Shown here one piece after another: positions 3,393-37,870 of a stretch of 58,543 nucleotides of DNA. Each line of letters opens with the position of its first letter. Position 1 is the stretch's first letter. The stretch lies in the sequence record SRR16203515_2665; one strand, given 5' to 3'. Position numbers and translations under genes: made by a program. The notes under the pieces were generated by a model that saw only the letters and a program-made list of their open reading frames with translations, did no database searches and was not told the DNA's origin.

Positions 3393-4903
3393 ATGGATAA
3401 AATCGTCAGACTTCGGGCTGAGGACAACGTGGTAGTTGCCAACCGTACACTAGAGGCGGGGTACGACATTGGGGGCATAGTGCTGCGAGACGCCATTCCA
3501 GCAGGGCATAAAATCGCGTCATCTGACATTTCGGCAGGTGCACGCATTTTGAAATATGGACAGACCATCGGCTACGCCATGTCTGACATCCCTTCTGGCA
3601 CGCATTTGCATACGCATAATGTGGAATTTCGCGCAACGGATGCTGCCTACCAATTCGGCACAAATTTGCGTGATGTGGCACCTGTTCCCGAGCAGGAGCG
3701 CGATACATTTATGGGATATCGTCGCGAAAATGGCAGCGTGGGAACGCGCAACTACATTGCCATTGTCACATCCGTAAATTGTTCTGCCACGGCTGCGCGG
3801 CGCATTGCGGACAGTTTTGGGGAAGAGGAGTTGTCCCAATATCCCAACGTTGATGGTGTTGTGGCATTCGTGCATGGCACAGGGTGCGGCATGGCAGGCG
3901 ATGGTGAAGGGTTTGAGGCGCTGCAACGTGTCATGTGGGGGTACGCCAAACATCCAAATCACGGCGGTGTCGTGATGGTTGGTTTGGGCTGTGAAATGAA
4001 CCAAATTGACTGGCTGCTGGATGCCTATGGATTGAAACAATCCCCAACCTTTCAAACTATGAATATTCAATCGGTTGCGGGGTTGCAGAAAACGATTGAA
4101 ATGGGTGTGAAAAAGGTACGCGAGATGCTGCCCATCGTGAATGCCGCGCGGCGCATGCCTTGTCCTGCGTCTGAATTAAAGGTGGCGCTGCAATGTGGCG
4201 GATCGGATGCATGGTCGGGGATCACCGCCAATCCTGCATTGGGCGAGGCTTGTGATTTGCTTGTGGCCCAAGGGGGCACAGGGGTTTTGGCCGAAACGCC
4301 CGAAATCTATGGCGCCGAACATCTGCTGACAGAACGCGCGATTGATCGCGCAACGGGGGATCGCCTCATCGGGTTGATCAACTGGTGGGAGGATTACACC
4401 GCACGAAACCGTGGATCGATGGACAACAACCCCAGCCCTGGAAACAAAAAAGGGGGGCTGACCACCATCCTTGAAAAATCATTGGGGGCGGCGGCCAAGG
4501 GGGGAACAACCCCTCTGACAGGCGTTTATAAATACGCCAACCCGTGCGCGCACGTGGGTTCACATTTATGGACAGCCCTGGGTATGATCCCGCCTCGGTC
4601 ACGGGACAGATCGCGGGGGGCTGTAACCTTGTGTGTTTCACCACGGGTCGCGGATCGGCCTTTGGTTCAAAGCCCGCGCCAACCATCAAACTATCCACCA
4701 ACACGGCGATGTACGAACGCATGGTGGATGACATGGATATCAATTGTGGGGACATCATTACAGGTGGTGCAACAATCCAATCAAAGGGCCGCGAGATTTA
4801 TGATTTGTTCCTGCGCGTCGCCTCGGGTGAGGCGTCAAAATCCGAAGCACAGGGTTTGGGTGATTATGAATTTGTGCCATGGCAAATTGGGGCGGTGATG
4901 TGA
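3393..4903 (+). pseudogene. UxaA/GarD family dehydratase with SAF domain, split by a 1-nt frameshift at about 4538
   Basis: GTRNYI, HGTGCG, LQCGGSD, NNPSPGNKKGGLTTILEKSLG in one frame; FMDSPGYD, FTTGRGS continue in another frame (ORF 4544..4903). Confidence 0.85.
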
Positions 4904-5904
4904 TGGTAAAACTTCTTCTTGCTGGAACGGGACTGATTGGTGAACGCCATCTAAATCATATTTTGGAACACCCTGATTTGACGCTTGCGGGCATAATTGA
5001 CCCAGTGGTCGAAAATCGCACCGTCGCCCATGCGCCGGGTTTTTCCACGTTGGACGATGTGGATGTCGCGGCAGATGGGATCATATTGGCAACCCCCACT
5101 GATACTCACGCGCCCCTAACCATTGCGGCACTGGAACGGGGGTTGCATGTACTGGTTGAAAAACCCGTGGCTGCGTCCTTGGCTGAAGCGGATGAGATGA
5201 TCGCCGCATCAAAGCGCACAGGGAAAAAGATATTGGTGGGGCACCATCGCCGCCATCATCCCTTGGTCAGCAAAACGGTTGAAATCCTATCCTCGGGTCA
5301 GATTGGCCGTCCCTTGGTGGCCTCGCTTTTGTGGTGCATGAAAAAACCGGATGATTATTTCAATGTGGACTGGCGCAAAGGTGTGGATGGCGGACCCGTC
5401 AAACAAAACCTGATCCACGACGTTGATACACTGCGCGCCTTTTTTGGCGAGGTGACATCCGTCACTGGTGCAGGCAGCAATGTGATGCGCAATGCCCCGC
5501 GCCACGAAAACGGCGGCGTGGTTTTAACATTTGACAGTGGGGCGATTGTCACAATCGCCTTTTCGGATGTCACGCCAACCCCATGGGGATTTGAGGCCGG
5601 CACAGGAGAAAGCCCGCATATCCCAAAAACGGCACAAACCTCGATGCAGATCGCCTGTTCAAACGGGGGATTGGAATTTCCGACATTAAATGTTTGGAGT
5701 GGGGCCGCGCATTGGAATGAAAAGCCCGAGATGCAGCCCACAGATGTCGATCAGGCTGTACCGTTGATCAAACAGTTAGAGCATTTCGCACAGGTGATCC
5801 AATGCAAAGCAGAGCCCGTAGTTGATGCCGCATCCGCGCGTGAAACGTTGGCTGTCATTTTGGAAATCGAACGCGCCACTGCGCCACCCTCGCTCAGATT
5901 ATAA
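4903..5904 (+). CDS. Gfo/Idh/MocA family oxidoreductase
   Basis: GTGLIG, HVLVEKP, GHHRRH, NLIHDVD. Confidence 0.9.
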   Translation: MVKLLLAGTGLIGERHLNHILEHPDLTLAGIIDPVVENRTVAHAPGFSTLDDVDVAADGIILATPTDTHAPLTIAALERGLHVLVEKPVAASLAEADEMIAASKRTGKKILVGHHRRHHPLVSKTVEILSSGQIGRPLVASLLWCMKKPDDYFNVDWRKGVDGGPVKQNLIHDVDTLRAFFGEVTSVTGAGSNVMRNAPRHENGGVVLTFDSGAIVTIAFSDVTPTPWGFEAGTGESPHIPKTAQTSMQIACSNGGLEFPTLNVWSGAAHWNEKPEMQPTDVDQAVPLIKQLEHFAQVIQCKAEPVVDAASARETLAVILEIERATAPPSLRL

Positions 5905-20235: not shown

Positions 20236-20250
20236 GTTCTTTGTTTGTTC
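20236..20250 (+). promoter_or_regulatory. LexA (SOS) box, host
   Basis: GTTC-TTTGTTT-GTTC matches the alphaproteobacterial GTTC-N7-GTTC consensus, 12 bp upstream of the radical SAM start. Confidence 0.8.
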
Positions 20251-28514: not shown

Positions 28515-28600
28515 GCCCGAGTGGCGGAATGGTAGACGCAGGGGATTCAAAATCCCCCGCCTTCACGGGCGTGTGAGTTCGAATCTCACCTTGGGCACCA
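28515..28600 (+). tRNA. tRNA-Leu(CAA); probable prophage integration target
   Basis: GCCCGAGTGGCGGAATGGTAGACGCAGGGGATTCAAAATCCCCCGCCTTCACGGGCGTGTGAGTTCGAATCTCACCTTGGGCACCA with long variable arm. Confidence 0.97.
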
Positions 28601-28704: not shown

Positions 28705-28719
28705 GTTCTCGCACTGTTC
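28705..28719. promoter_or_regulatory. Candidate LexA box near att
   Basis: GTTC-TCGCACT-GTTC, intergenic. Confidence 0.55.
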
Positions 28720-28741: not shown

Positions 28742-29779
28742 TCAATATTGTGTCCTTTCTAGTGCTGCCCGTGCACTGTTTGCTAACGCTTTTTGTTTCA
28801 CTGCTGCGGTGTAGTGATTCACCATTTGCTCCGTTTGTCCCGTAATCGCGGCAATCTCTTCAACAGTGCATCCAGCAATCATCAATTCACTTGCTGCTGA
28901 ATATCGTAACGAATGAATATCGTACTTTTCAGCACCAATCTTGTTGCGAATTTTGATTATCGCTTTCTGTGCTCCGTCATATGTCCATTTACCGTCACCG
29001 CTTGGATTGGTCACAATGAACATTGATTGCTTTTGCGTATTACCTAGTAACGTCAGGAGACGTGTTCCAAATGGCACCCACAGATGCTTACCAGTTTTAT
29101 TCTGTACGACATAAATGCCGCCCTCAGAAATTTCATGCCACTGCATATCAAGCACATCGCCAATGCGTTGTCCTGTACCCAATAACATTTCAAAAACTAG
29201 CAGTTCTCGTGGTCCCGCAACTTTTCTAAATTCATCCACCAAGGCAGGGGGCCATGGGAGACGTTTGGCTTTGGATGGTGGAAACAGTTTCACACCTTTG
29301 GCGTGGTTTGTATCTACCCATCCGATGTCGATTGCGTGTTCCATCAGAATACGCATCACTTGGACGCAGTAGTTAGCAAAGCGAGGCTTATCTGCATTCG
29401 CATCACGTAACCTTATGACGTCCTTTCTGCGTACTTTTCGTGGGTCAACCTCTGGCATATTTTTCAAAAGCGCACGTAACACACGGTCATAAGCTGGTCG
29501 TGTGCTATCCGCTAATTTTGTGTAACGAACAGATTTTTCGTAACTGCGAATTAGCTTGCGGAAGGTACGTCTGCTGTCGCGTTCATCAGCGAGCGTCCGC
29601 TCTTCGCGTTCCCCGCGCATCATCGAAGCATATTCTGCAAAAAACTCTGCGCTCTTGGGGTCTTGGTTTTGAAATTTAGCCGTAGTCCAACCCTGTCTTT
29701 CAAACCAAAGTGTTTTGGTCTTATGACGACCGCCACCTTTGTAATAGACATATTTTGGTAGTTTGACTTTGGCTGCCAT
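28742..29779 (-). CDS. Tyrosine recombinase/integrase 1 (att-proximal)
   Basis: GTGQRIGD (R), QNKTG (K), HSLR, NHY (Y); TAATG coupling to the upstream small gene. Confidence 0.93.
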   Translation of the reverse strand: MAAKVKLPKYVYYKGGGRHKTKTLWFERQGWTTAKFQNQDPKSAEFFAEYASMMRGEREERTLADERDSRRTFRKLIRSYEKSVRYTKLADSTRPAYDRVLRALLKNMPEVDPRKVRRKDVIRLRDANADKPRFANYCVQVMRILMEHAIDIGWVDTNHAKGVKLFPPSKAKRLPWPPALVDEFRKVAGPRELLVFEMLLGTGQRIGDVLDMQWHEISEGGIYVVQNKTGKHLWVPFGTRLLTLLGNTQKQSMFIVTNPSGDGKWTYDGAQKAIIKIRNKIGAEKYDIHSLRYSAASELMIAGCTVEEIAAITGQTEQMVNHYTAAVKQKALANSARAALERTQY

Positions 29780-29952
29780 TAGGTGAATTTCCAATCAACA
29801 TAATCAAGTTCGTTGACTTCATCGTCATCTTTTTTCTCGAACCATATTTCTATGGATTTGCCATCTACTTTGACGCCTTGCACATTCTTACCCTTCGCTT
29901 GAAACAAAGTCACAAGGTCTACGGCTCGTTGTGCAGTGCTAGTTTTCGCCAT
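29779..29952 (-). CDS. 57-aa protein coupled to integrase 1, candidate RDF/excisionase
   Basis: MAKTSTAQRAVDLV...; AGGAG RBS; stop overlaps the int1 start; paralog at 34908-35123. Confidence 0.65.
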   Translation of the reverse strand: MAKTSTAQRAVDLVTLFQAKGKNVQGVKVDGKSIEIWFEKKDDDEVNELDYVDWKFT

Positions 29953-29954
29953 GC

Positions 29955-30221
29955 TTACTCCTTTCTGGCTTTCTTGAGCCTGTCGAGTGCTGCCAGTGCT
30001 TTTGAAGGCTTCTGACGTGTCTCTACAGGCTTGTGAGGGGTAGGGGCTGCTGGTTTTACCCTGCAAGCCTCAATAAGGTCATTAATTTCATCGTCTCTAA
30101 TGCTCTTTGAGCGACCACACGCTATGATAAGACCGTGTTCTGTGGCGACCTTAACCATAGCATCGTGTGGTAAACCTAGTTGTTTCGCTAGGTCCTTAGT
30201 TTTGATTAGCTTGACGCTCAT
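29955..30221 (-). CDS. HTH/excisionase-like protein
   Basis: N-terminal LIKTKDLAKQLGL helix-turn-helix pattern; basic; overlaps the int2 end. Confidence 0.6.
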   Translation of the reverse strand: MSVKLIKTKDLAKQLGLPHDAMVKVATEHGLIIACGRSKSIRDDEINDLIEACRVKPAAPTPHKPVETRQKPSKALAALDRLKKARKE

Positions 30222-31269
30222 GTTTTCCCTGTTGATTATGGTGACCTTCCAATGCCATTGCAGCAGCATCAAGGTTCTTGGGCATCAAGTGCGAATAGGC
30301 AGCAATCTGCCTAATGTCCTTGTGGCCCATCCAATGTTGCGCCGTTATCAAATCAACACCATTCGCCAGTAGGCGGGTGCAGCAGGTGTGCCGCATGGCG
30401 TGGATTACAAACTGCGCGTCTTCACTCAGACCAAGCGCGTTGCGCATCTTGTTCCAAGCATTCTCAAAGCTACGCAGCGACAGATGTCCGAAGACAGTTG
30501 CTTGTGTAGCACCACGTTCAAGGCGCAACTGACGAACAGCAGCCTTAATACGATTTGTCATGGACACCGAACGTGACTTACCTGTCTTCGTGCGGTTGCC
30601 CCAAAATGTTATGCGATTGGACTGGAAGTCGACATCAGCCCACTCAAGTTTAAATGCCTCAGCCTTTCGACATCCTGAATCCATGTAGAAATAATACAGG
30701 GGAACGAAATGCGGTGCGTTATCCCAGAACCAGTTTTCTGCACACTGGTCTTCAACGTCAGAAAGATACCTTTTGCGACCTTCTGCGACCTGTACATGAC
30801 CCATGCGCTGAGGTTTGTTGGTCATGCCGCCGCGTTCGTAAGCATACTTCATGGCTCCGTATAGGAAGCTGGACGTACCATTGATGTGGGATGCGCTGTA
30901 CTTGGACAGCATGTCATCGAACAAAGCCTTCTGCTTGGGCATCGTGATTGCATCCATGAACGTATCAGCACCGAAGTGTTCAATCAGTGCGTTGGCATAG
31001 CTGTTGTATTGACGCGGACTGGCAGTATCGCTTTTTGATGTATCTACACGGTAGTCAACGTAACGGTTCATCGCCTCACGCACTGTCATAGGCGCAGCAT
31101 TGCTGTCACTGACTGATGCGGATGCCACAACACCCGCTTTCACTTGCGCCAAAAACAATTCAGCCAATGCCAATGTGTCGAAGGATTGCACATAGCGTTT
31201 GCTGTTGTGCTGTTTGTCGACTTGGAATTTGCCTGTGGGTGTCAGGGATATGCCAGAGGGTAGGGGCAT
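30196..31269 (-). CDS. Tyrosine recombinase/integrase 2
   Basis: SGCRKAE (R), TKTG (K), HAMRH, MGH, AAY; full catalytic set. Confidence 0.93.
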   Translation of the reverse strand: MPLPSGISLTPTGKFQVDKQHNSKRYVQSFDTLALAELFLAQVKAGVVASASVSDSNAAPMTVREAMNRYVDYRVDTSKSDTASPRQYNSYANALIEHFGADTFMDAITMPKQKALFDDMLSKYSASHINGTSSFLYGAMKYAYERGGMTNKPQRMGHVQVAEGRKRYLSDVEDQCAENWFWDNAPHFVPLYYFYMDSGCRKAEAFKLEWADVDFQSNRITFWGNRTKTGKSRSVSMTNRIKAAVRQLRLERGATQATVFGHLSLRSFENAWNKMRNALGLSEDAQFVIHAMRHTCCTRLLANGVDLITAQHWMGHKDIRQIAAYSHLMPKNLDAAAMALEGHHNQQGKHERQANQN

Positions 31270-31270
31270 C

Positions 31271-32653
31271 TTAATCACCATCTCCTTCGCCAGAACCACC
31301 GTAAGCACCTTTACCAAATCCACCTTGGCCGAATGCTTTCATGGTTTCTTGCATTTGTTTCATCATTTCCTGCATATCTTCGACCTGCTTTTTCATGTCC
31401 AAGTAGTCTTGGCTTGGCTTAGAGCGTTCTTCGAGTTCTTCGCTTGCCTGAAGTGCCTGAGCGCGGTCTGTTTCCAAACGCGCTCTCTCTTGTGGGTGTA
31501 TGTGCTTACCTTTTGCATCCATCTCCATTTCTATGGATGCCGCGTGTTTTGCCGCAGCGCGTGACATACCTTCTGCTGCAACTTGGTTGCGGTATTCCGC
31601 ACCCATCTTACGCTCTAGGTCTGCTTCATGTTCACTGAGCAGTTTGTGCAGAGCGCGACGAAAACGATTAAAGTCGTTTTTGTTTAAATATTGATCTGCG
31701 TAATGCAATGCTTCTGATAATGATTGTGTTCTGCCAATCACCGCATCCACCTTGCTTTGTACATATTTCGTCAACATCGCAGTATCAGCGTCACGCACGT
31801 ACATATCTGCATCATCTTTCGCTGGGTCGCTGTTGGGATTGAACAGATACCAGCGACCCTTGTCGCCACGCTTACGTGTCCAACCTGCGTTATCACCCAG
31901 TGACATACCTTCCAGAAAATCAACGGACTTGATGGTTCGTTTTGCGCGGTAAGGGTTTTTGTCAGGGCGTCCCAACCAGATGGCACCTGTTACAGTGTCT
32001 ACCCACCAATGCTTGTCGCGTGTAGTTGCAAAATATTCTTTGTTGTCTTTTGGCATGTGCTGCCAAGCGGCAACTGGTATTGGATAGTCTTGACTGACGC
32101 CCCACTTGGCATCATCAAGATACTTTGCCCAGTTGCTTGGGTTGTCACCCCAATGGAATTTACCAGTCTCTGCTTCAAGATGGTGGTGGACCTTGGATTC
32201 TTCACCATCCTTCCACGCCATGTTGTCCCACCAGCCAATATCGGAACTGGTTGCCTGATGTAATGCACCTAAAACCTCGCTCCCTTTCGCTGACAGAAAA
32301 ATTCTACGGTATCTTTTATCTTGAAGGTCTTTTTGTATTTGAAACCAACCAAGGCAACGACCACCACGAACAGCAGTAGGGTCATCAGCTAACAGATAGA
32401 ATACGCGGTCAGCTGATGATTGTTGTTTGAAGCCTAACGACTTTGCAACCTTGTGTAATTCAAGACCCTGTTCGGTCATGCCTAAAAACAGATACACAGC
32501 AGTCTGCATCGCTTTCATTGTCAGCACACCATCACCTGCATGTTTCTGCAGGACGTCAAACTGGTGCAACATTACGGACAAGTCGTTGCGCATCTGTTTA
32601 CTGGTTACGATTGGCATGGTTATACTCCTACACCTTGGATTCATTTGCCTCAT
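31271..32653 (-). CDS. Protein with N-terminal MarR-like winged helix and a long unknown C-terminal extension
   Basis: VAKSLGFKQQSSADRV...LGWFQIQKDLQDKRYRRIFLSAKG fits the MarR wing; sits upstream of an integrase. Confidence 0.65.
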   Translation of the reverse strand: MRQMNPRCRSITMPIVTSKQMRNDLSVMLHQFDVLQKHAGDGVLTMKAMQTAVYLFLGMTEQGLELHKVAKSLGFKQQSSADRVFYLLADDPTAVRGGRCLGWFQIQKDLQDKRYRRIFLSAKGSEVLGALHQATSSDIGWWDNMAWKDGEESKVHHHLEAETGKFHWGDNPSNWAKYLDDAKWGVSQDYPIPVAAWQHMPKDNKEYFATTRDKHWWVDTVTGAIWLGRPDKNPYRAKRTIKSVDFLEGMSLGDNAGWTRKRGDKGRWYLFNPNSDPAKDDADMYVRDADTAMLTKYVQSKVDAVIGRTQSLSEALHYADQYLNKNDFNRFRRALHKLLSEHEADLERKMGAEYRNQVAAEGMSRAAAKHAASIEMEMDAKGKHIHPQERARLETDRAQALQASEELEERSKPSQDYLDMKKQVEDMQEMMKQMQETMKAFGQGGFGKGAYGGSGEGDGD

Positions 32654-34310: not shown

Positions 34311-34553
34311 TTATGTGTTGATTAGGTGCAATGCTGGGACTGCGATTTTTGTATAGTGGCCATTATAATAATGTGTGTTGACCCAAACGCAGGTCTGGCC
34401 ACCGATTTGTTCCCACTTGTGAGAAATGCGGTATTTGACGTCTTCTGGCATTGTGTGCGCAGCGGCGTCGAGGTGTTCCTTCACAGCGTGAGGGTCGCCT
34501 TGAATTTGGGATGCACGGTCCCCATATATAATGTGCAGGTCAGTCGAAACCAT
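34311..34553 (-). CDS. Hypothetical early protein (first gene after the sigma70-like promoter)
   Basis: AGGAG RBS; 80 aa. Confidence 0.65.
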   Translation of the reverse strand: MVSTDLHIIYGDRASQIQGDPHAVKEHLDAAAHTMPEDVKYRISHKWEQIGGQTCVWVNTHYYNGHYTKIAVPALHLINT

Positions 34554-34597
34554 CTTAATCTCCTAAATGCGACTACGGACGAATTTGTCCGATTCGA

Positions 34598-34626
34598 AGC
34601 GTACACGAGAGATAAAACCCAGTCAA
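34598..34626 (-). promoter_or_regulatory. Sigma70-like early promoter
   Basis: TTGACT-17 bp-TACGCT, 45 bp upstream of the 34553 start. Confidence 0.55.
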
Positions 34627-34789
34627 TACGCACATGGCAAACAAATCCATATTAACGGTGCTTAAGGGTCGTTTGTAACAGCTTTATGACAACCCGAACA
34701 AATGTCTGGAAAAACAGCAGGGTCAGCGCAAAAGCGTCTTCACTATATAATAAGGAGTGGTGCTGGTGCGAAAACGGCAGGTTGAGACA

Positions 34790-34837
34790 CAAAAAATGCG
34801 GCACAGCTAAAATTAAGGGAGGGAGAGGCTGTACCGC
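34790..34837 (-). terminator. Intrinsic terminator with CU-rich loop
   Basis: GCGGTACAGC / CTCTCCCTCCCTTAATTTTA / GCTGTGCCGC then ATTTTTTG. Confidence 0.6.
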
Positions 34838-34907
34838 AAGTTACCCGAAGGTAAGAACATGAATAATGTGGTGTTGCATAAGGTGTGCCAATTCGAAAAC
34901 GGCAGGG

Positions 34908-35123
34908 CTATGATTTTTGCTTTTGGGAGAACTTGCGTTGCATGAGTTGATGGAGTTTGTTTCTGCCAAACGCTTCGTCAACCGAATTGTAACTGCCACC
35001 ATCATCAATGAACTCGACGCGGATTTTGGTTTTGTCAATTTCGACAGCTTTGACCTCGTATCCGTGATTGTGAAATGTGCTGACTAATTCTAATGCGCGG
35101 TTCGTGACGCTAACCTTGGCCAT
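34908..35123 (-). CDS. Paralog of the integrase-1-coupled small protein
   Basis: MAKVSVTNRALELV... aligns ungapped with 29779-29952 (15 identities in the first 38 aa); AGGA RBS. Confidence 0.7.
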   Translation of the reverse strand: MAKVSVTNRALELVSTFHNHGYEVKAVEIDKTKIRVEFIDDGGSYNSVDEAFGRNKLHQLMQRKFSQKQKS

Positions 35124-35534
35124 CTGTAGGTATCCTGTGAGTTGAGAAAACGATAGGTAAAACACAGACAGGCAAATCGCGCCGATGCAACCCAAAATCA
35201 GGGCAAAATGGCGCGTGTTAAATTACAGATTTAACCCCACCCCCAGTATTTATTGGATAATCCTAGCTTGCCTTGGACAATCGCTGGAATTGCCCCTGAT
35301 TTTTGCAGGGATTTGGTCGAGGCGGCATGGGGGGATTTTTGCGACGGGTATTTAGCGTACACCCGCTCAGATTTTTTTGTCAGAATTATTGTCAACCCAA
35401 TTTCGACCAATGACAAAAAATTACCATTTAAGGTTTTGCGGGACGACACGCAGGGATTCGTGCCTATAAATAGGTAGTTATCGTAACAGTTCAAAGGAAA
35501 TGCGATGACGCTCAAAAAACCTCTTTCAAAGTTC

Positions 35535-35569
35535 TTGACAAATCCGTCAGTTAAGAACAAAAGTAGAAC
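35535..35569 (+). promoter_or_regulatory. Candidate LexA-repressed promoter
   Basis: TTGACA 35535-35540 and GAAC-AAAAGTA-GAAC 35555-35569. Confidence 0.7.
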
Positions 35570-35627
35570 ATTCCAAAATCGTCGATATTTAAAAACCAGC
35601 ATGGCTCATGCCTATGGGGGGCAACCT

Positions 35628-35819
35628 ATGTTTATTTCAAATCGTCCACCTAAAGACGAACCAGATGAGGTCACTCAGTTGGCCCATGCGATAATCGAGT
35701 TGGTTTTACCAAAATACGATTTAGGTGAGCGGTTGACGTTGGAAGAAATGAACTGGGTTGTGGAATTAGCCGAATTGCAACTTAACGAGGCATACGGTGA
35801 CCCTTCTAACTACGATTAA
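35628..35819 (+). CDS. Small acidic hypothetical protein, antisense to the phage genes
   Basis: MFISNRPPKDEP...; G-rich RBS; downstream of the LexA box. Confidence 0.55.
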   Translation: MFISNRPPKDEPDEVTQLAHAIIELVLPKYDLGERLTLEEMNWVVELAELQLNEAYGDPSNYD

Positions 35820-36039
35820 GAAACATCACATCAGCATCCACTGCACTTGGTGTAACCATTCACGAATGACCACGGTCGCTAAAATCCTGACTATGGTTTC
35901 TGACAATTACACCTTTGAACGCTTAAAACGGAACGCCAAGTGCAACAGATGCGGTCGCCAAAAGGCTGACCTCAGGATTCATTACGTTACACCTGAGGCC
36001 GCTAGGTATCATGAAGAGAACCCAAGGTTGGACCTGTAG
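35797..36039 (+). CDS. Small zinc-ribbon protein (CTWC...CNRC)
   Basis: GAGG RBS before the GTG start; two CxxC pairs. Confidence 0.7.
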   Translation: MTLLTTIKKHHISIHCTWCNHSRMTTVAKILTMVSDNYTFERLKRNAKCNRCGRQKADLRIHYVTPEAARYHEENPRLDL

Positions 36040-36041
36040 TT

Positions 36042-36111
36042 ACCTGTAGTTGACCTATAGATAGACGTTGTACGATGTCTTATTTTTATATCTTTTAGGT
36101 CACCTATAGGT
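36042..36111 (-). repeat. Short repeats CTA(C/T)AGGT x4, like T7 SRR/SRL end repeats
   Basis: Plus strand ACCTGTAG, ACCTGTAG, ACCTATAG, ACCTATAG downstream of terL. Confidence 0.6.
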
Positions 36112-36127
36112 AGGGTTTCCCCTTTAC

Positions 36128-36140
36128 CCATAGTACAACC
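36128..36140 (-). promoter_or_regulatory. Candidate phage RNA polymerase promoter (phiOR-like position)
   Basis: GGTTGTACTATGG just downstream of terL. Confidence 0.7.
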
Positions 36141-36175
36141 TTATTATTTGGTCTTTTTCAAAGCCGCTACGAACG

Positions 36176-37870
36176 TCACCACTTATAGGAACTATTAGTA
36201 TCCTTGAGATTATGACCTGTCATAATTGCAAATCCTAGCTGATGTTGTCGTTGCATTCTGCGCATTTCGTCTCTCATCAGGTCTTCACGTCTTGCTGCCA
36301 TACGCTTCTCGACGTCTTGAGCCATAGCATCCACCCAATATTGAACGGCCATAGCAAGTGCGTCTAAACGGTCGTCGTTGACCAGTGCGCCTCTGTCTCT
36401 CGTTATTCTGGTGAGTTGGTACATCAATTGATAACGCAGGGCTTGCTCAGGCGGCAGATGCTGACAGCTTTCGTAGTCTTTTTTGATGACCTTCTTGTCC
36501 ACCACAAGCCTGTGTTGGTTCATTACAGGTTCCAGAACGTCTATTATCCGCAGTTCCTTTTGCTTATTGTGACGGACCTCTGAGAGGGTACAGGGGTAAA
36601 TCCTATTCAGCACAGGCGTGAACAGTTGGTTAAACATACCGTCACCGAAGTTGGACTCGACGATTATCTCGTTCACACCTTCTTCTTTGGCGATACGCGC
36701 AAGCTGTTCTAAGGCTTCCTCTGAGTACCCACCAGCTATCCCACCGCATCGACGGACGAACTGATAGCCGTTGAGCATTTTTACGACTGCATAACCAGTT
36801 TCATCAACGCCTCTACCTGAGGGGTCGATACTCATAACTGAGCCGCTGTATTCGACAAAATCGTCAGCCATAAACATAGGTCTGTGGTAGTGGTCACCTG
36901 TAAATCCTACGTTTGGCAAATCTTGGACAATATACTGTTCATCAGATGACCATGAGAGCCGCTCAGGAGCCTCGTGAGTGGGGCAATCCATCACGATTAG
37001 GTCACCTACCTTAAGAGGGTATCTAAGGGCGTCAGAGAGTCTTGTATCGAGCATGAACTGAAGGGCGAATCCGCTGCGTCCATAAGATGCTTCACGCTCT
37101 AGTAAGTCAAACTCAGAGAAACGTTTTGGGTCAGTTGGTTGACCTTCTAAGTTAATGTCGTTTTGCAGTCTGCTATTTACGAATTTAGCCAGCTTACCAC
37201 CATATCCAATACTTGTATCTTCATCGGGGTAACGTGCTGGCCAGATATGCGTTTTGTAACCACGTTCTGGTAGCTTATTGTAGAGGCTTTCTTGGTTCTG
37301 TGGCGTACCCAAATAGATGATACGTCCATCAGGCTTTAAGATAGCGTCAAATTCCTTCACGGCCTCTGATAAACGGTCCCGCATACCCTGTGTCATAGAG
37401 TTATTTGGCACCTCAATATCATCCGCAATAATGTAATCCGCACGTGAACCCGCCAATTGGCCAGTAATTCCGACGCTTTTTACAGAAGGTGCGTGGCTTG
37501 CGGCGGCTGGACCGACGTCAAAACTGATTTTTGACTGCCTTTGGTCCTCTCGTGGACGCAAATGCGCCAGTATTTCCATCTCATTTATCAGTCTAAGCGT
37601 GAAAGTTGTGAAGTCATCAGCGCGTGTTTTGGACGCTGACACCACAAGTATGTTTAATTGTGGGTTACAATAGAGCAACCAAACTACATATGCGGACGTA
37701 ATCCAGCTTTTGCCTACACCACGGAACGCTTCAACAATCATTCGTTTGTCGCCGTGCTGGATATTCTTAGCAATATCGTACTGAACGGGTGTCGGGTCAG
37801 GCAAATTAAGGTGCTTCCAGACGACAAATAGGAATTTGCGAAAATCACTTAATGGATTAGGCTGTGTCAT
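36176..37870 (-). CDS. Terminase large subunit (T7 gp19-like)
   Basis: AFRGVGKSW, GITGQLAGSRAD.IIADD, YLGTPQ, IDPSGRG.DETG, DDRLDAL. Confidence 0.96.
   Translation of the reverse strand: MTQPNPLSDFRKFLFVVWKHLNLPDPTPVQYDIAKNIQHGDKRMIVEAFRGVGKSWITSAYVVWLLYCNPQLNILVVSASKTRADDFTTFTLRLINEMEILAHLRPREDQRQSKISFDVGPAAASHAPSVKSVGITGQLAGSRADYIIADDIEVPNNSMTQGMRDRLSEAVKEFDAILKPDGRIIYLGTPQNQESLYNKLPERGYKTHIWPARYPDEDTSIGYGGKLAKFVNSRLQNDINLEGQPTDPKRFSEFDLLEREASYGRSGFALQFMLDTRLSDALRYPLKVGDLIVMDCPTHEAPERLSWSSDEQYIVQDLPNVGFTGDHYHRPMFMADDFVEYSGSVMSIDPSGRGVDETGYAVVKMLNGYQFVRRCGGIAGGYSEEALEQLARIAKEEGVNEIIVESNFGDGMFNQLFTPVLNRIYPCTLSEVRHNKQKELRIIDVLEPVMNQHRLVVDKKVIKKDYESCQHLPPEQALRYQLMYQLTRITRDRGALVNDDRLDALAMAVQYWVDAMAQDVEKRMAARREDLMRDEMRRMQRQHQLGFAIMTGHNLKDTNSSYKW

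Follow-up and report, generated by a model that had tools for sequence, protein, structure and literature searches.

A temperate T7-like prophage carries, just behind its terminase gene and on the strand opposite to the phage genes, a cassette of two small genes preceded by a predicted LexA operator. The prophage lies in SRR16203515_2665, a stretch of 58,543 nucleotides (nt) that was analysed as a whole and is called the window here. The cassette is very probably under LexA control and inducible by DNA damage; we infer LexA binding and damage induction from an operator and a promoter geometry established by comparison with related sequences. A more tentative proposal, to which somewhat less than an even chance is given, is that the operon serves as the SOS input of the prophage: by analogy with other phages, it would be an antirepressor-type trigger acting in trans on a MarR-type repressor. 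The cassette, in which ORF denotes an open reading frame and aa amino acids, and the gene that faces it are made up as follows:

35535-35540, + strand: -35 hexamer TTGACA of the cassette promoter, read from the sequence
35555-35569, + strand: predicted LexA-type operator GAACAAAAGTAGAAC, an alphaproteobacterial direct repeat with a perfect GAAC-N7-GAAC
35570-35627, + strand: 5' leader, which contains a small hairpin (about 35599-35611) and, as ribosome-binding site, GGGGGG (35616-35621), from sequence and alignment
35628-35819, + strand: ORF1, a 63-aa acidic protein, predicted helical hairpin, with its ATG at 35628 behind the GGGGGG
35797-36039, + strand: ORF2, an 80-aa basic Zn-ribbon protein, with a GTG start behind GAGG, overlapping the end of ORF1 by 23 nt
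36176-37870, - strand: T7-type large terminase (TerL), convergent with the cassette (PF22530, E-value 9.4e-40)

The hexamer TTGACA and the box GAACAAAAGTAGAAC are separated by 14 nt, so that the box covers, by geometry, the place expected for the -10 element (35558-35563 with a 17-nt spacer). A preliminary description of this DNA, made from the letters alone, had reported a TTGACA followed by a perfect GAAC-N7-GAAC box over the -10 region. Both elements are present as described, with no consensus -10 hexamer beside them, and the -10 zone is covered in the geometric sense only. The leader that follows has no codon-position bias and is thus noncoding. Its hairpin has a consensus fold of five pairs, three of them with compensatory changes among eight sequences, and a weak energy of -3.27 kcal/mol; read on the - strand, the same hairpin has a T-run after the stem and scores as terminator-like. 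RNA-library contigs of relatives, taken from four of six RNA-labelled runs among 19 listed, are short and cover 35724-35940, 35768-35918, 35496-35645 and 35473-35622, plus TerL. These contigs come without strand or starts, two of them include DNA upstream of the promoter, DNA carry-over is possible, and they speak neither for nor against use of the promoter.

The cassette was found in 11 sequences: the window, L004, eight metagenome contigs (L117-L124) and L072, the latter being one further divergent carrier among 80 TerL-related viral loci. A single IMG/VR contig appears under the names L004, L005 and L127. All 11 were found through the proteins of the cassette itself, so the set shows that the box is present wherever the cassette is; it contains near-duplicates (L118/L119, L121/L122 and L123/L124) and represents about five or six lineages. 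The order box, ORF1, ORF2 is kept in every one of the 11, with a GAAC-N7-GAAC box within about 75 nt ahead of ORF1 in each. In 10 of them the promoter takes the form of a -35 hexamer (TTGACA in eight, TTGACT in L123/L124) followed by N14 and GAACAAA[AT]GTAGAACAT, the 14-nt spacer and the flanks varying in sequence. The box is the longest invariant block of an upstream alignment of eight sequences. In the divergent L072, TTGACC stands 25 nt ahead of the box, and GAAC-N7-GAAC is kept with a different spacer, GAACATACCGTGAAC.

Protein identity across the lineages falls to 22-39% for ORF1 and to 41-69% for ORF2, the L072 copy of ORF2 being 25% identical over 52 aa. The cassette lies antisense just after TerL in the window, L004 and L072; the alignments of L117 and L120-L122 with the window reach the end of TerL or run into it, and those of L118 and L119 cover the cassette only. 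A conservation survey of this kind had been suggested as a check of the preliminary description, and its outcome favours the regulation proposed there: LexA control is well supported because the box is retained by all 11 sequences, and the -35, the spacing and the box form by 10, while the flanks drift.

Frequency in the window distinguishes the bare motif from the form seen at the cassette. Bare GAAC-N7-GAAC occurs five times in the window against 2.04 expected, and at least five times in 6 of 100 shuffles, which is not significant. The extended form GAACA-N3-GTAGAAC (GAACANNNGTAGAAC) occurs once against 0.01 expected, with a match in 1 of 100 shuffles, which is significant. For comparison with host operators, the nearest genome (G001) was used as a stand-in for the host; it shares 35% of sampled 31-mers with the window and is not the window's own genome. 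The bare motif has 85 sites in G001, against 104 for a control pattern.

Upstream of lexA, G001 carries TTGACA-N8-GAACACATGTAGAAC, and upstream of recA it carries GAACAAGAGTAGAAC; the position ahead of these two genes was checked in G001 only. Only two of the 85 bare sites in that genome have GTAGAAC as the second repeat, and these are the lexA and recA sites. The phage box GAACAAAAGTAGAAC differs from the recA operator GAACAAGAGTAGAAC at 1 of 15 positions, a spacer base, and has the same orientation to its gene, while the variant box of related cassettes, GAACAAATGTAGAAC, is one base off the lexA operator GAACACATGTAGAAC. The extended motif is present in all eight genomes searched of the host genus, with 12 sites against one control site, and is no commoner than control in the other 33 genomes searched (8 sites against 10). 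The predicted LexA box of the host clade is thus the alphaproteobacterial GAAC-N7-GAAC, used at its lexA and recA. Enrichment in the host genus, together with the near-match to the recA and lexA sites, indicates that the phage operator copies the strongest operators of that genus. The exact 15-mer GAACAAAAGTAGAAC was also seen at G421:C4:614009-614023, in a 1.6-megabase genome of another family of the same class.

The host part of the window offers an internal control:

20236-20250, - strand: host LexA-type box GTTCTTTGTTTGTTC, ahead of a PA0069-family radical SAM gene

This box sits between TTTACA and TATATT, and an identical 15-mer is present in G001, in agreement with the preliminary description, which had pointed to the same box type before this gene. 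PA0069 is a member of the Pseudomonas LexA regulon. The gammaproteobacterial box CTGT-N8-ACAG was also tried and discarded, with one site in the window against 0.61 expected, located inside a structural gene. At the early genes within the window no LexA-type box was found.

Comparison likewise establishes that both genes of the cassette are coding. For ORF1, homology in all other lineages starts at M[FY]ISN, and variation by codon position among five close sequences is 11/7/30 within the gene, against 9/9/6 in the 123 nt upstream. That 123-nt extension contains in-frame stops in L004, L123, L124 and L072, four of the six sequences of other lineages. A 104-aa ORF starting at 35505 was therefore rejected as the gene, given its lack of codon bias, the in-frame stops and the start of homology at 35628. 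These same features mark the 104-aa protein called by several sources as a gene-calling artefact that translates the promoter. The small acidic protein of the preliminary description is consequently retained on the + strand, antisense to the phage genes, as a 63-aa product from 35628 and not as the longer ORF. By hand count from the translation it has 14 D/E against 4 K/R. Its model has a mean predicted local distance difference test score (pLDDT) of 72.9, with helices at 14-32 and 38-56, and its homologues are found only in this cassette.

The second gene had been described as a CxxC-CxxC zinc ribbon running against the phage gene flow, and this is what ORF2 on the + strand proves to be. The cysteine pairs are C16-x2-C19 and C49-x2-C52, and the four cysteines, together with H21, are invariant in 20 aligned homologues. 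The protein is basic (14 K/R against 7 D/E, hand count from the translation), with a model pLDDT of 86.9. Its overlap with ORF1 is also found in L004, and the two genes are presumably translationally coupled. Against PHROGs, only phrog_22120 (function unassigned) was matched, weakly (E-value 0.0069). Foldseek against the PDB gave nothing at E-values up to 0.001, its only rows being generic Zn-ribbons (HypA, rubredoxin); a wide VIA-align search gave a best Z of 3.7 and no fold match, and a profile search against PDB sequences gave E-values of at least 0.2. NCBIfam and PADLOC held no match for ORF2, and the ESM Atlas held unnamed clusters only.

The candidate target of the cassette lies at the other end of the early region:

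31271-32653, - strand: 460-aa candidate prophage repressor whose N-terminus is a MarR-type winged helix (profile against PDB sequences, MarR/SlyA chains at E-value 1e-6)

It is 26% identical (E-value 2e-5) to gp7 of the phage CRP-227, annotated as 'MarR family'. The preliminary description had mentioned a MarR-like protein as part of the circuit; the protein is present and best placed at these coordinates (460 aa), and it would act as the prophage repressor. It has no S24 domain in Pfam, and a Pfam scan of 33 window ORFs shows no S24 peptidase or CI-type domain in any of them, in line with the earlier statement that no CI-like repressor is visible in the window. Being MarR-type and without S24, the candidate repressor cannot itself sense RecA. 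Its 320-aa C-terminal extension, with a charged coiled-coil-like end, has no family match, and the protein has only two close relatives in a collection of 5.8 billion proteins. L004 and L019 encode proteins of like size and layout, at an identity of just 20-26%.

The proposed circuit is as follows. In the lysogen, host LexA would sit on GAACAAAAGTAGAAC, in the -10/+1 zone of the TTGACA promoter, and keep both genes off. Upon DNA damage, active RecA would promote self-cleavage of LexA, and the acidic helical hairpin (ORF1) and the basic Zn-ribbon (ORF2) would be made. Their products would then act in trans on the MarR-type protein, a repressor unable to sense RecA, as tum does in coliphage 186. 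The layout is consistent with this: the cassette and the MarR-type gene occupy opposite strands about 3 kilobases (kb) apart, which places the cassette, with its own LexA-type box, outside the immunity region. When the window is compared with L004, ORF1 (37% identity) and the MarR-type protein (26%) prove to have diverged together, unlike ORF2 (80%), TerL (98%) and the integrase (87% nucleotide identity), a comparison of one lineage pair within a generally mosaic early region. Complex prediction for the 460-aa protein with ORF1 returned 'no answer' in two runs (score 0.00), which speaks neither for nor against binding.

Antirepressors belong to many unrelated families. The SPC32H/epsilon15 group reportedly has LexA-controlled ones. 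In the P2-like phages, tum makes coliphage 186 inducible, while its relative P2, without tum, is not. The tum product is cited as a LexA-controlled antirepressor in a passage of PMC9437464, the Salmonella Gifsy prophages have trans-acting LexA-controlled antirepressors according to PMC3121763, and both papers present LexA-controlled antirepressor or lytic genes as an established induction route in several unrelated phages. Like the tum module, the cassette has a promoter of its own with a LexA-type operator, located near a genome end and well away from the immunity region; it too is a module with a small, putatively trans-acting product that some relatives have and others lack, and in both phages the repressor, here a candidate one, is not cleavable through RecA. 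It differs in that there is no similarity of sequence or fold, that the operator is the alphaproteobacterial direct repeat and not CTGT-N8-ACAG, that a T7-like phage with a MarR-type regulator takes the place of a P2-like phage with CI, and that there are two genes, one of them a Zn-ribbon, for which antirepressor action is conjectural. With the Gifsy and SPC32H/epsilon15 systems it would share SOS control, through LexA, of a small antirepressor gene outside the immunity region, and modules exchangeable between phages. Phage families and hosts are different, no homology exists, and here a winged-helix protein of the MarR type, extended by 320 aa, would be the target.

The antirepressor reading is favoured because the candidate repressor cannot sense RecA, because LexA-gated antirepressors are established elsewhere and because ORF1 and the MarR-type protein have diverged together. 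The preliminary description had proposed that host LexA controls an antirepressor-like trigger; of this, comparison supports the LexA control, and no homology of the products was found for the role of antirepressor or induction switch. A fuller version of the proposal, in which LexA would gate both a specificity-matched, co-diverging anti-MarR protein (ORF1) and a new-family Zn-ribbon that is a repeated Rhodobacterales SOS effector, and would so make a MarR-repressed T7-like prophage damage-inducible, is unlikely to be right in all its parts, if not markedly so.

Several observations weigh against the cassette being the induction trigger of the prophage. No consensus -10 is present at its promoter, and a promoter scan of 34500-36500 does not list that promoter. 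The host operators were taken from G001 and its congeners, not from the window's own genome, and the co-divergence of ORF1 with the MarR-type protein comes from the single lineage pair and mosaic region mentioned above. ORF1 has no match in Pfam, PHROG, NCBIfam or PADLOC and only unnamed clusters in the ESM Atlas, and ORF2 reaches no Pfam family at or above the cut-off; judged by these sequence searches, both proteins fall outside any described family. Of 60 TerL-related viral loci in which 900 nt or more follow TerL, only 2 (L005 and L072) have the cassette, and it has no match among 50,697 phage records, which include the CRP isolates with a MarR and integrase module. It therefore cannot be a general switch of this phage group and, on a distribution established by sequence comparison, it is an accessory module.

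The contexts of the Zn-ribbon family fall on the same side. A full HMMER scan gave 31 relatives of ORF2 at E-values up to 1e-3, and the profile has matches in 34 of 401 host-family genomes, in very mixed contexts that are mostly non-prophage. No box precedes 27 of the 30 host-family loci examined; in the other three, a bare box is found within 350 nt upstream, where about 0.3 would be expected by chance (an estimate, not a computed value). Two of these three, L138 and L145, have the GTAGAAC signature. At L138 the box is GAACGCATGTAGAAC and the gene follows a WYL-domain regulator. Regulators of the WYL type are often tied to DNA-damage responses. At L145 an identical GAACAAAAGTAGAAC stands 15 nt ahead of the Zn-ribbon start, with no ORF1 and no prophage gene on a contig of only 1.6 kb that holds little else; this arrangement suggests an SOS function directed at the host. 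A Zn-ribbon homologue is also present in L018 and L027, where it lies upstream of TerL on the phage-gene strand and not in a cassette of this kind, the one in L018 among opposite-strand ORFs.

Elsewhere in the family, a plausible small acidic upstream ORF is seen in 2 of the 30 loci (L130 and L138), and the copy of G001 has no box. In two unrelated genomes, L155 and L125 (a truncated copy from a separate search), the Zn-ribbon gene comes directly after a tyrosine integrase and overlaps its end. Searches for remote homologues gave none with ORF2 against genome contigs and nothing new with P0002, P0011 and P0004 against viral contigs; a separate search with P0011 turned up the truncated L125 copy that follows an integrase, plus a single dubious match. 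In the host-family genome G198, contig C1 has 14 Zn-ribbon matches in tandem clusters, some with stops, and other matches lie at contig ends, which suggests a repeated or mobile unit.

From these data it is quite possible, although on the whole doubtful, that the cassette is SOS-regulated cargo (a moron): LexA control would be real, and the proteins would act on the host or on competitors, in division, replication, repair or phage exclusion, and not on induction. Its accessory occurrence (2 of 60 related loci) fits cargo, as does its position at a variable junction where L004 has extra antisense signal-peptide and membrane-protein ORFs. So do the spread of the Zn-ribbon family through 34 of 401 host-family genomes, mostly outside prophages, and the boxed host loci (3 of 30 with the bare box; L138 and L145 with GTAGAAC), among them the gene behind a WYL-domain regulator at L138 and the identical 15-mer without ORF1 at L145. 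However, there is no family or defence-system match and hence no positive functional evidence for this explanation, and ORF1 is found only in the phage cassette, where it diverges along with the MarR-type protein. Moreover, an accessory distribution is seen equally for a true antirepressor in the 186/P2 precedent.

It is improbable that the box is not a working operator, its conservation coming from some other constraint (on the promoter or leader, for instance, or on the site of a phage protein) and expression being independent of LexA. The commonness of the bare motif (85 sites in G001 against 104 for control), the missing consensus -10, the recovery of all 11 sequences through the cassette proteins, with several close relatives among them, and the extension of RNA-library contigs of relatives upstream of the promoter would agree with this. 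Nevertheless, the box is the longest invariant block while its flanks drift, its match to the host genus's lexA and recA operators is in a form that is rare elsewhere, and the divergent L072 changes the spacer yet keeps both GAAC repeats at N7.

Still less probable is a role in excision control, in which the basic Zn-ribbon would be produced under SOS conditions only and would serve as a recombination directionality factor or as a cofactor of an integrase. No recognisable excisionase is found in the window with Pfam or PHROGs, members of the family directly follow a tyrosine integrase in L155 and L125, and ORF2 is basic (14 K/R against 7 D/E). On the other hand, integrase-adjacent copies make up just 2 of about 31 contexts, some 4 kb separate the cassette from the integrases, it is missing from relatives whose integrase is of the same type, and ORF2 has no similarity to known families of excisionases or recombination directionality factors. 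Finally, a LexA-controlled type II toxin-antitoxin pair, for which LexA-controlled modules in other bacteria offer parallels and whose usual layout (acidic antitoxin first, basic toxin second) is suited by the gene order, sizes, charges and 23-nt overlap, is very improbable, since most Zn-ribbon homologues are solitary (acidic partner in 2 of 30, L130 and L138), which would be intolerable for a toxin, and neither Pfam nor PADLOC gives a toxin-antitoxin or defence family match.

The prophage that carries the cassette begins within the window at a tRNA gene, and its integration and regulatory surroundings include the following features:

28515-28600, + strand: tRNA-Leu(caa), integration site and left prophage border (tRNA call, drop in G+C content)
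28742-29794, - strand: outer tyrosine integrase adjoining the tRNA-Leu (PF00589, E-value 3.2e-13)
29955-30272: 105-aa ORF between the inner and outer integrases
30196-31323, - strand: inner tyrosine integrase, the phage's own (PF00589, E-value 1.7e-22; matches the integrase at the L004 contig end with 87% nucleotide identity)
35147-35390, no strand assigned: conserved non-coding block between the cassette promoter and the first early gene, 87% identical in L004
36032-36188, + strand: six direct ACC[TC][AG]TAG-type repeats between the ORF2 stop and the end of TerL

Host DNA occupies bases 1 to about 28500, with a G+C content of about 0.50-0.54, against 0.43-0.49 beyond; at tRNA-Leu(caa) it drops from about 0.51 to about 0.47. 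The prophage genes start at this tRNA and lie on the - strand. Leftwards from the window end, Pfam assignments give ribonucleotide reductase, portal, scaffold, T7-type capsid, tail tube A, nozzle, gp13, gp14, tail-fibre N-terminus, TerS and TerL, so that structural and packaging genes are of the T7 type and in T7 order. Further leftwards come the two-gene cassette, several early ORFs without assignment, the 460-aa protein, the inner integrase, the 105-aa ORF and the outer integrase. The window ends inside the ribonucleotide reductase gene, and the remainder of the prophage must lie outside it. TerL is 78-79% identical to that of the Roseobacter phages CRP-227, CRP-113, CRP-171 and others, and CRP-type Autographiviridae have a 'MarR family' gene and an integrase ahead of the RNA polymerase gene. 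With a MarR-like regulator adjoining a tyrosine integrase and integration at a tRNA, the element is, as read from its sequence, a temperate T7-like prophage of a marine Roseobacter-type bacterium, with two tyrosine integrases and a MarR-type protein. G001 does not have this prophage; its sole match is window 34789-34893 (86%). This 105-nt stretch of the early region corresponds to a spot in a G001 small-ORF island that shares nothing else with the prophage, and the neighbouring 60 nt (34711-34770) are 93% identical in L004; these stretches may represent a small RNA or regulatory element.

The two integrases show no significant BLASTP similarity to each other, and no tRNA-fragment repeat separates the inner integrase, the 105-aa ORF and the outer integrase. 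The outer integrase and the 105-aa ORF may be left over from a different element at this tRNA. The preliminary description had made the att-proximal box and the dual integrases partners of the cassette, and neither association gained support. The box, GAACAGTGCGAGAAC at 28705-28719, which follows the stop codon of the outer integrase, shows the bare motif and lacks the host signature; no link between the cassette and the two integrases, themselves mutually unrelated, was seen.

Relatives that lack the cassette, such as L059, L065 and L067, have the core of the conserved block (35330-35390) about 340-410 nt behind TerL, and two weaker matches (L015 and L045) lie further out; the cassette thus looks like an insertion between TerL and the block, which is possibly a genome-end or early-promoter region. 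In L004, at 4811-5500, two further antisense ORFs stand beside the block, encoding a 129-aa signal-peptide protein and an 80-aa membrane protein, and they look like prophage-expressed morons. Repeats of the end-of-genome kind occur beside the T7 terminal repeat. Those at 36032-36188, which include all three window copies of CTATAGGT (0.36 expected) and have similar motifs at the same place in L004, L072 and L019, may be end-of-genome repeats or protein-binding sites. CTATAGG-type motifs were rejected as a general phage promoter, as they are found only beside the cassette.

Seven cassette-less contigs (L013, L014, L016, L017, L019, L020 and L073) have an antisense GAAC-N7-GAAC box about 350 nt after TerL, between the block and the first early gene. 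It reads GAACAAA[AG]CATGAAC in six and GAACAAAGAATGAAC in L020, with no ORF behind it. The whole 300-nt region is uniformly conserved, so that the box cannot be singled out. LexA might act directly on the early region in these seven contigs. As a positional homologue of the cassette box, this box of cassette-less subgroup B was rejected, because it lies on the other side of the conserved block and inside the uniformly conserved region.

For a long time, T7-like phages were regarded as strictly lytic. Among pelagiphages, cyanophages, roseophages and Pseudomonas phages, temperate members with a MarR and integrase module are now known. Such a lysogeny module is presented for LUZ100 in PMC10134795 and for the CRP roseophages in PMC11092137, where nine of ten described roseophages are said to carry an integrase. 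The prophage shares with them a T7-type genome, a MarR-like gene directly ahead of a tyrosine integrase and integration at a tRNA, the RNA polymerase gene coming next in the free phages; it differs in the 460-aa length of its MarR-type protein and in its second, unrelated integrase. In CRP-227, the closest isolate inspected, no antisense cassette is annotated, and neither cassette protein matches the phage collection.

The small size (about 70-80 aa) and the four cysteines in two CxxC-like pairs recall P2 Ogr and P4 Delta, which are zinc-finger late activators. The cysteine spacing is different, ORF2 has an invariant histidine and no evidence of transcription activation, and the Ogr/Delta family is absent among the Pfam families for ORF2 at E-values up to 1 and among the 25 of 33 families shown for its 20 homologues. 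Direct LexA repression of phage promoters is described for GIL01 and CTX-phi in PMC4551915; there, too, host LexA is the damage sensor through SOS boxes in a phage promoter, but it acts on the main lytic or replication promoter, as against an accessory antisense operon here.

LexA-gated accessory operons in prophages are already known. New here are their occurrence in a family of temperate phages, the Autographiviridae, an alphaproteobacterial box matched to the host genus, a proposed partner of the MarR type and two undescribed protein families. The literature search found no paper linking LexA to temperate T7-like phages, a mention in Boeckman et al. 2022 being possible, which accords with the earlier remark that no such circuit had been described in this group. 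LexA and SOS have no occurrence in the LUZ100 (PMC10134795) and CRP roseophage (PMC11092137) papers, and among the papers listed for Autographiviridae, LexA and prophage, none is on the topic by title and abstract.

How temperate T7-like prophages sense host distress is not described in the papers searched. The cassette provides a candidate for the SOS input of a phage whose host belongs to an abundant marine Roseobacter lineage, with an operator that copies the recA and lexA sites of the host, and natural relatives without it, the CRP phages, are a ready comparison. It also brings forward two protein families without assigned function, one of them widespread in Paracoccaceae genomes. Should the cassette be SOS-regulated cargo, it would still add a phage-borne member to the alphaproteobacterial LexA regulon. 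If it is a LexA-gated anti-MarR device, it would be the first defined induction circuit of temperate Autographiviridae, and it would explain why some marine T7-like prophages respond to ultraviolet light or mitomycin C and their relatives do not.

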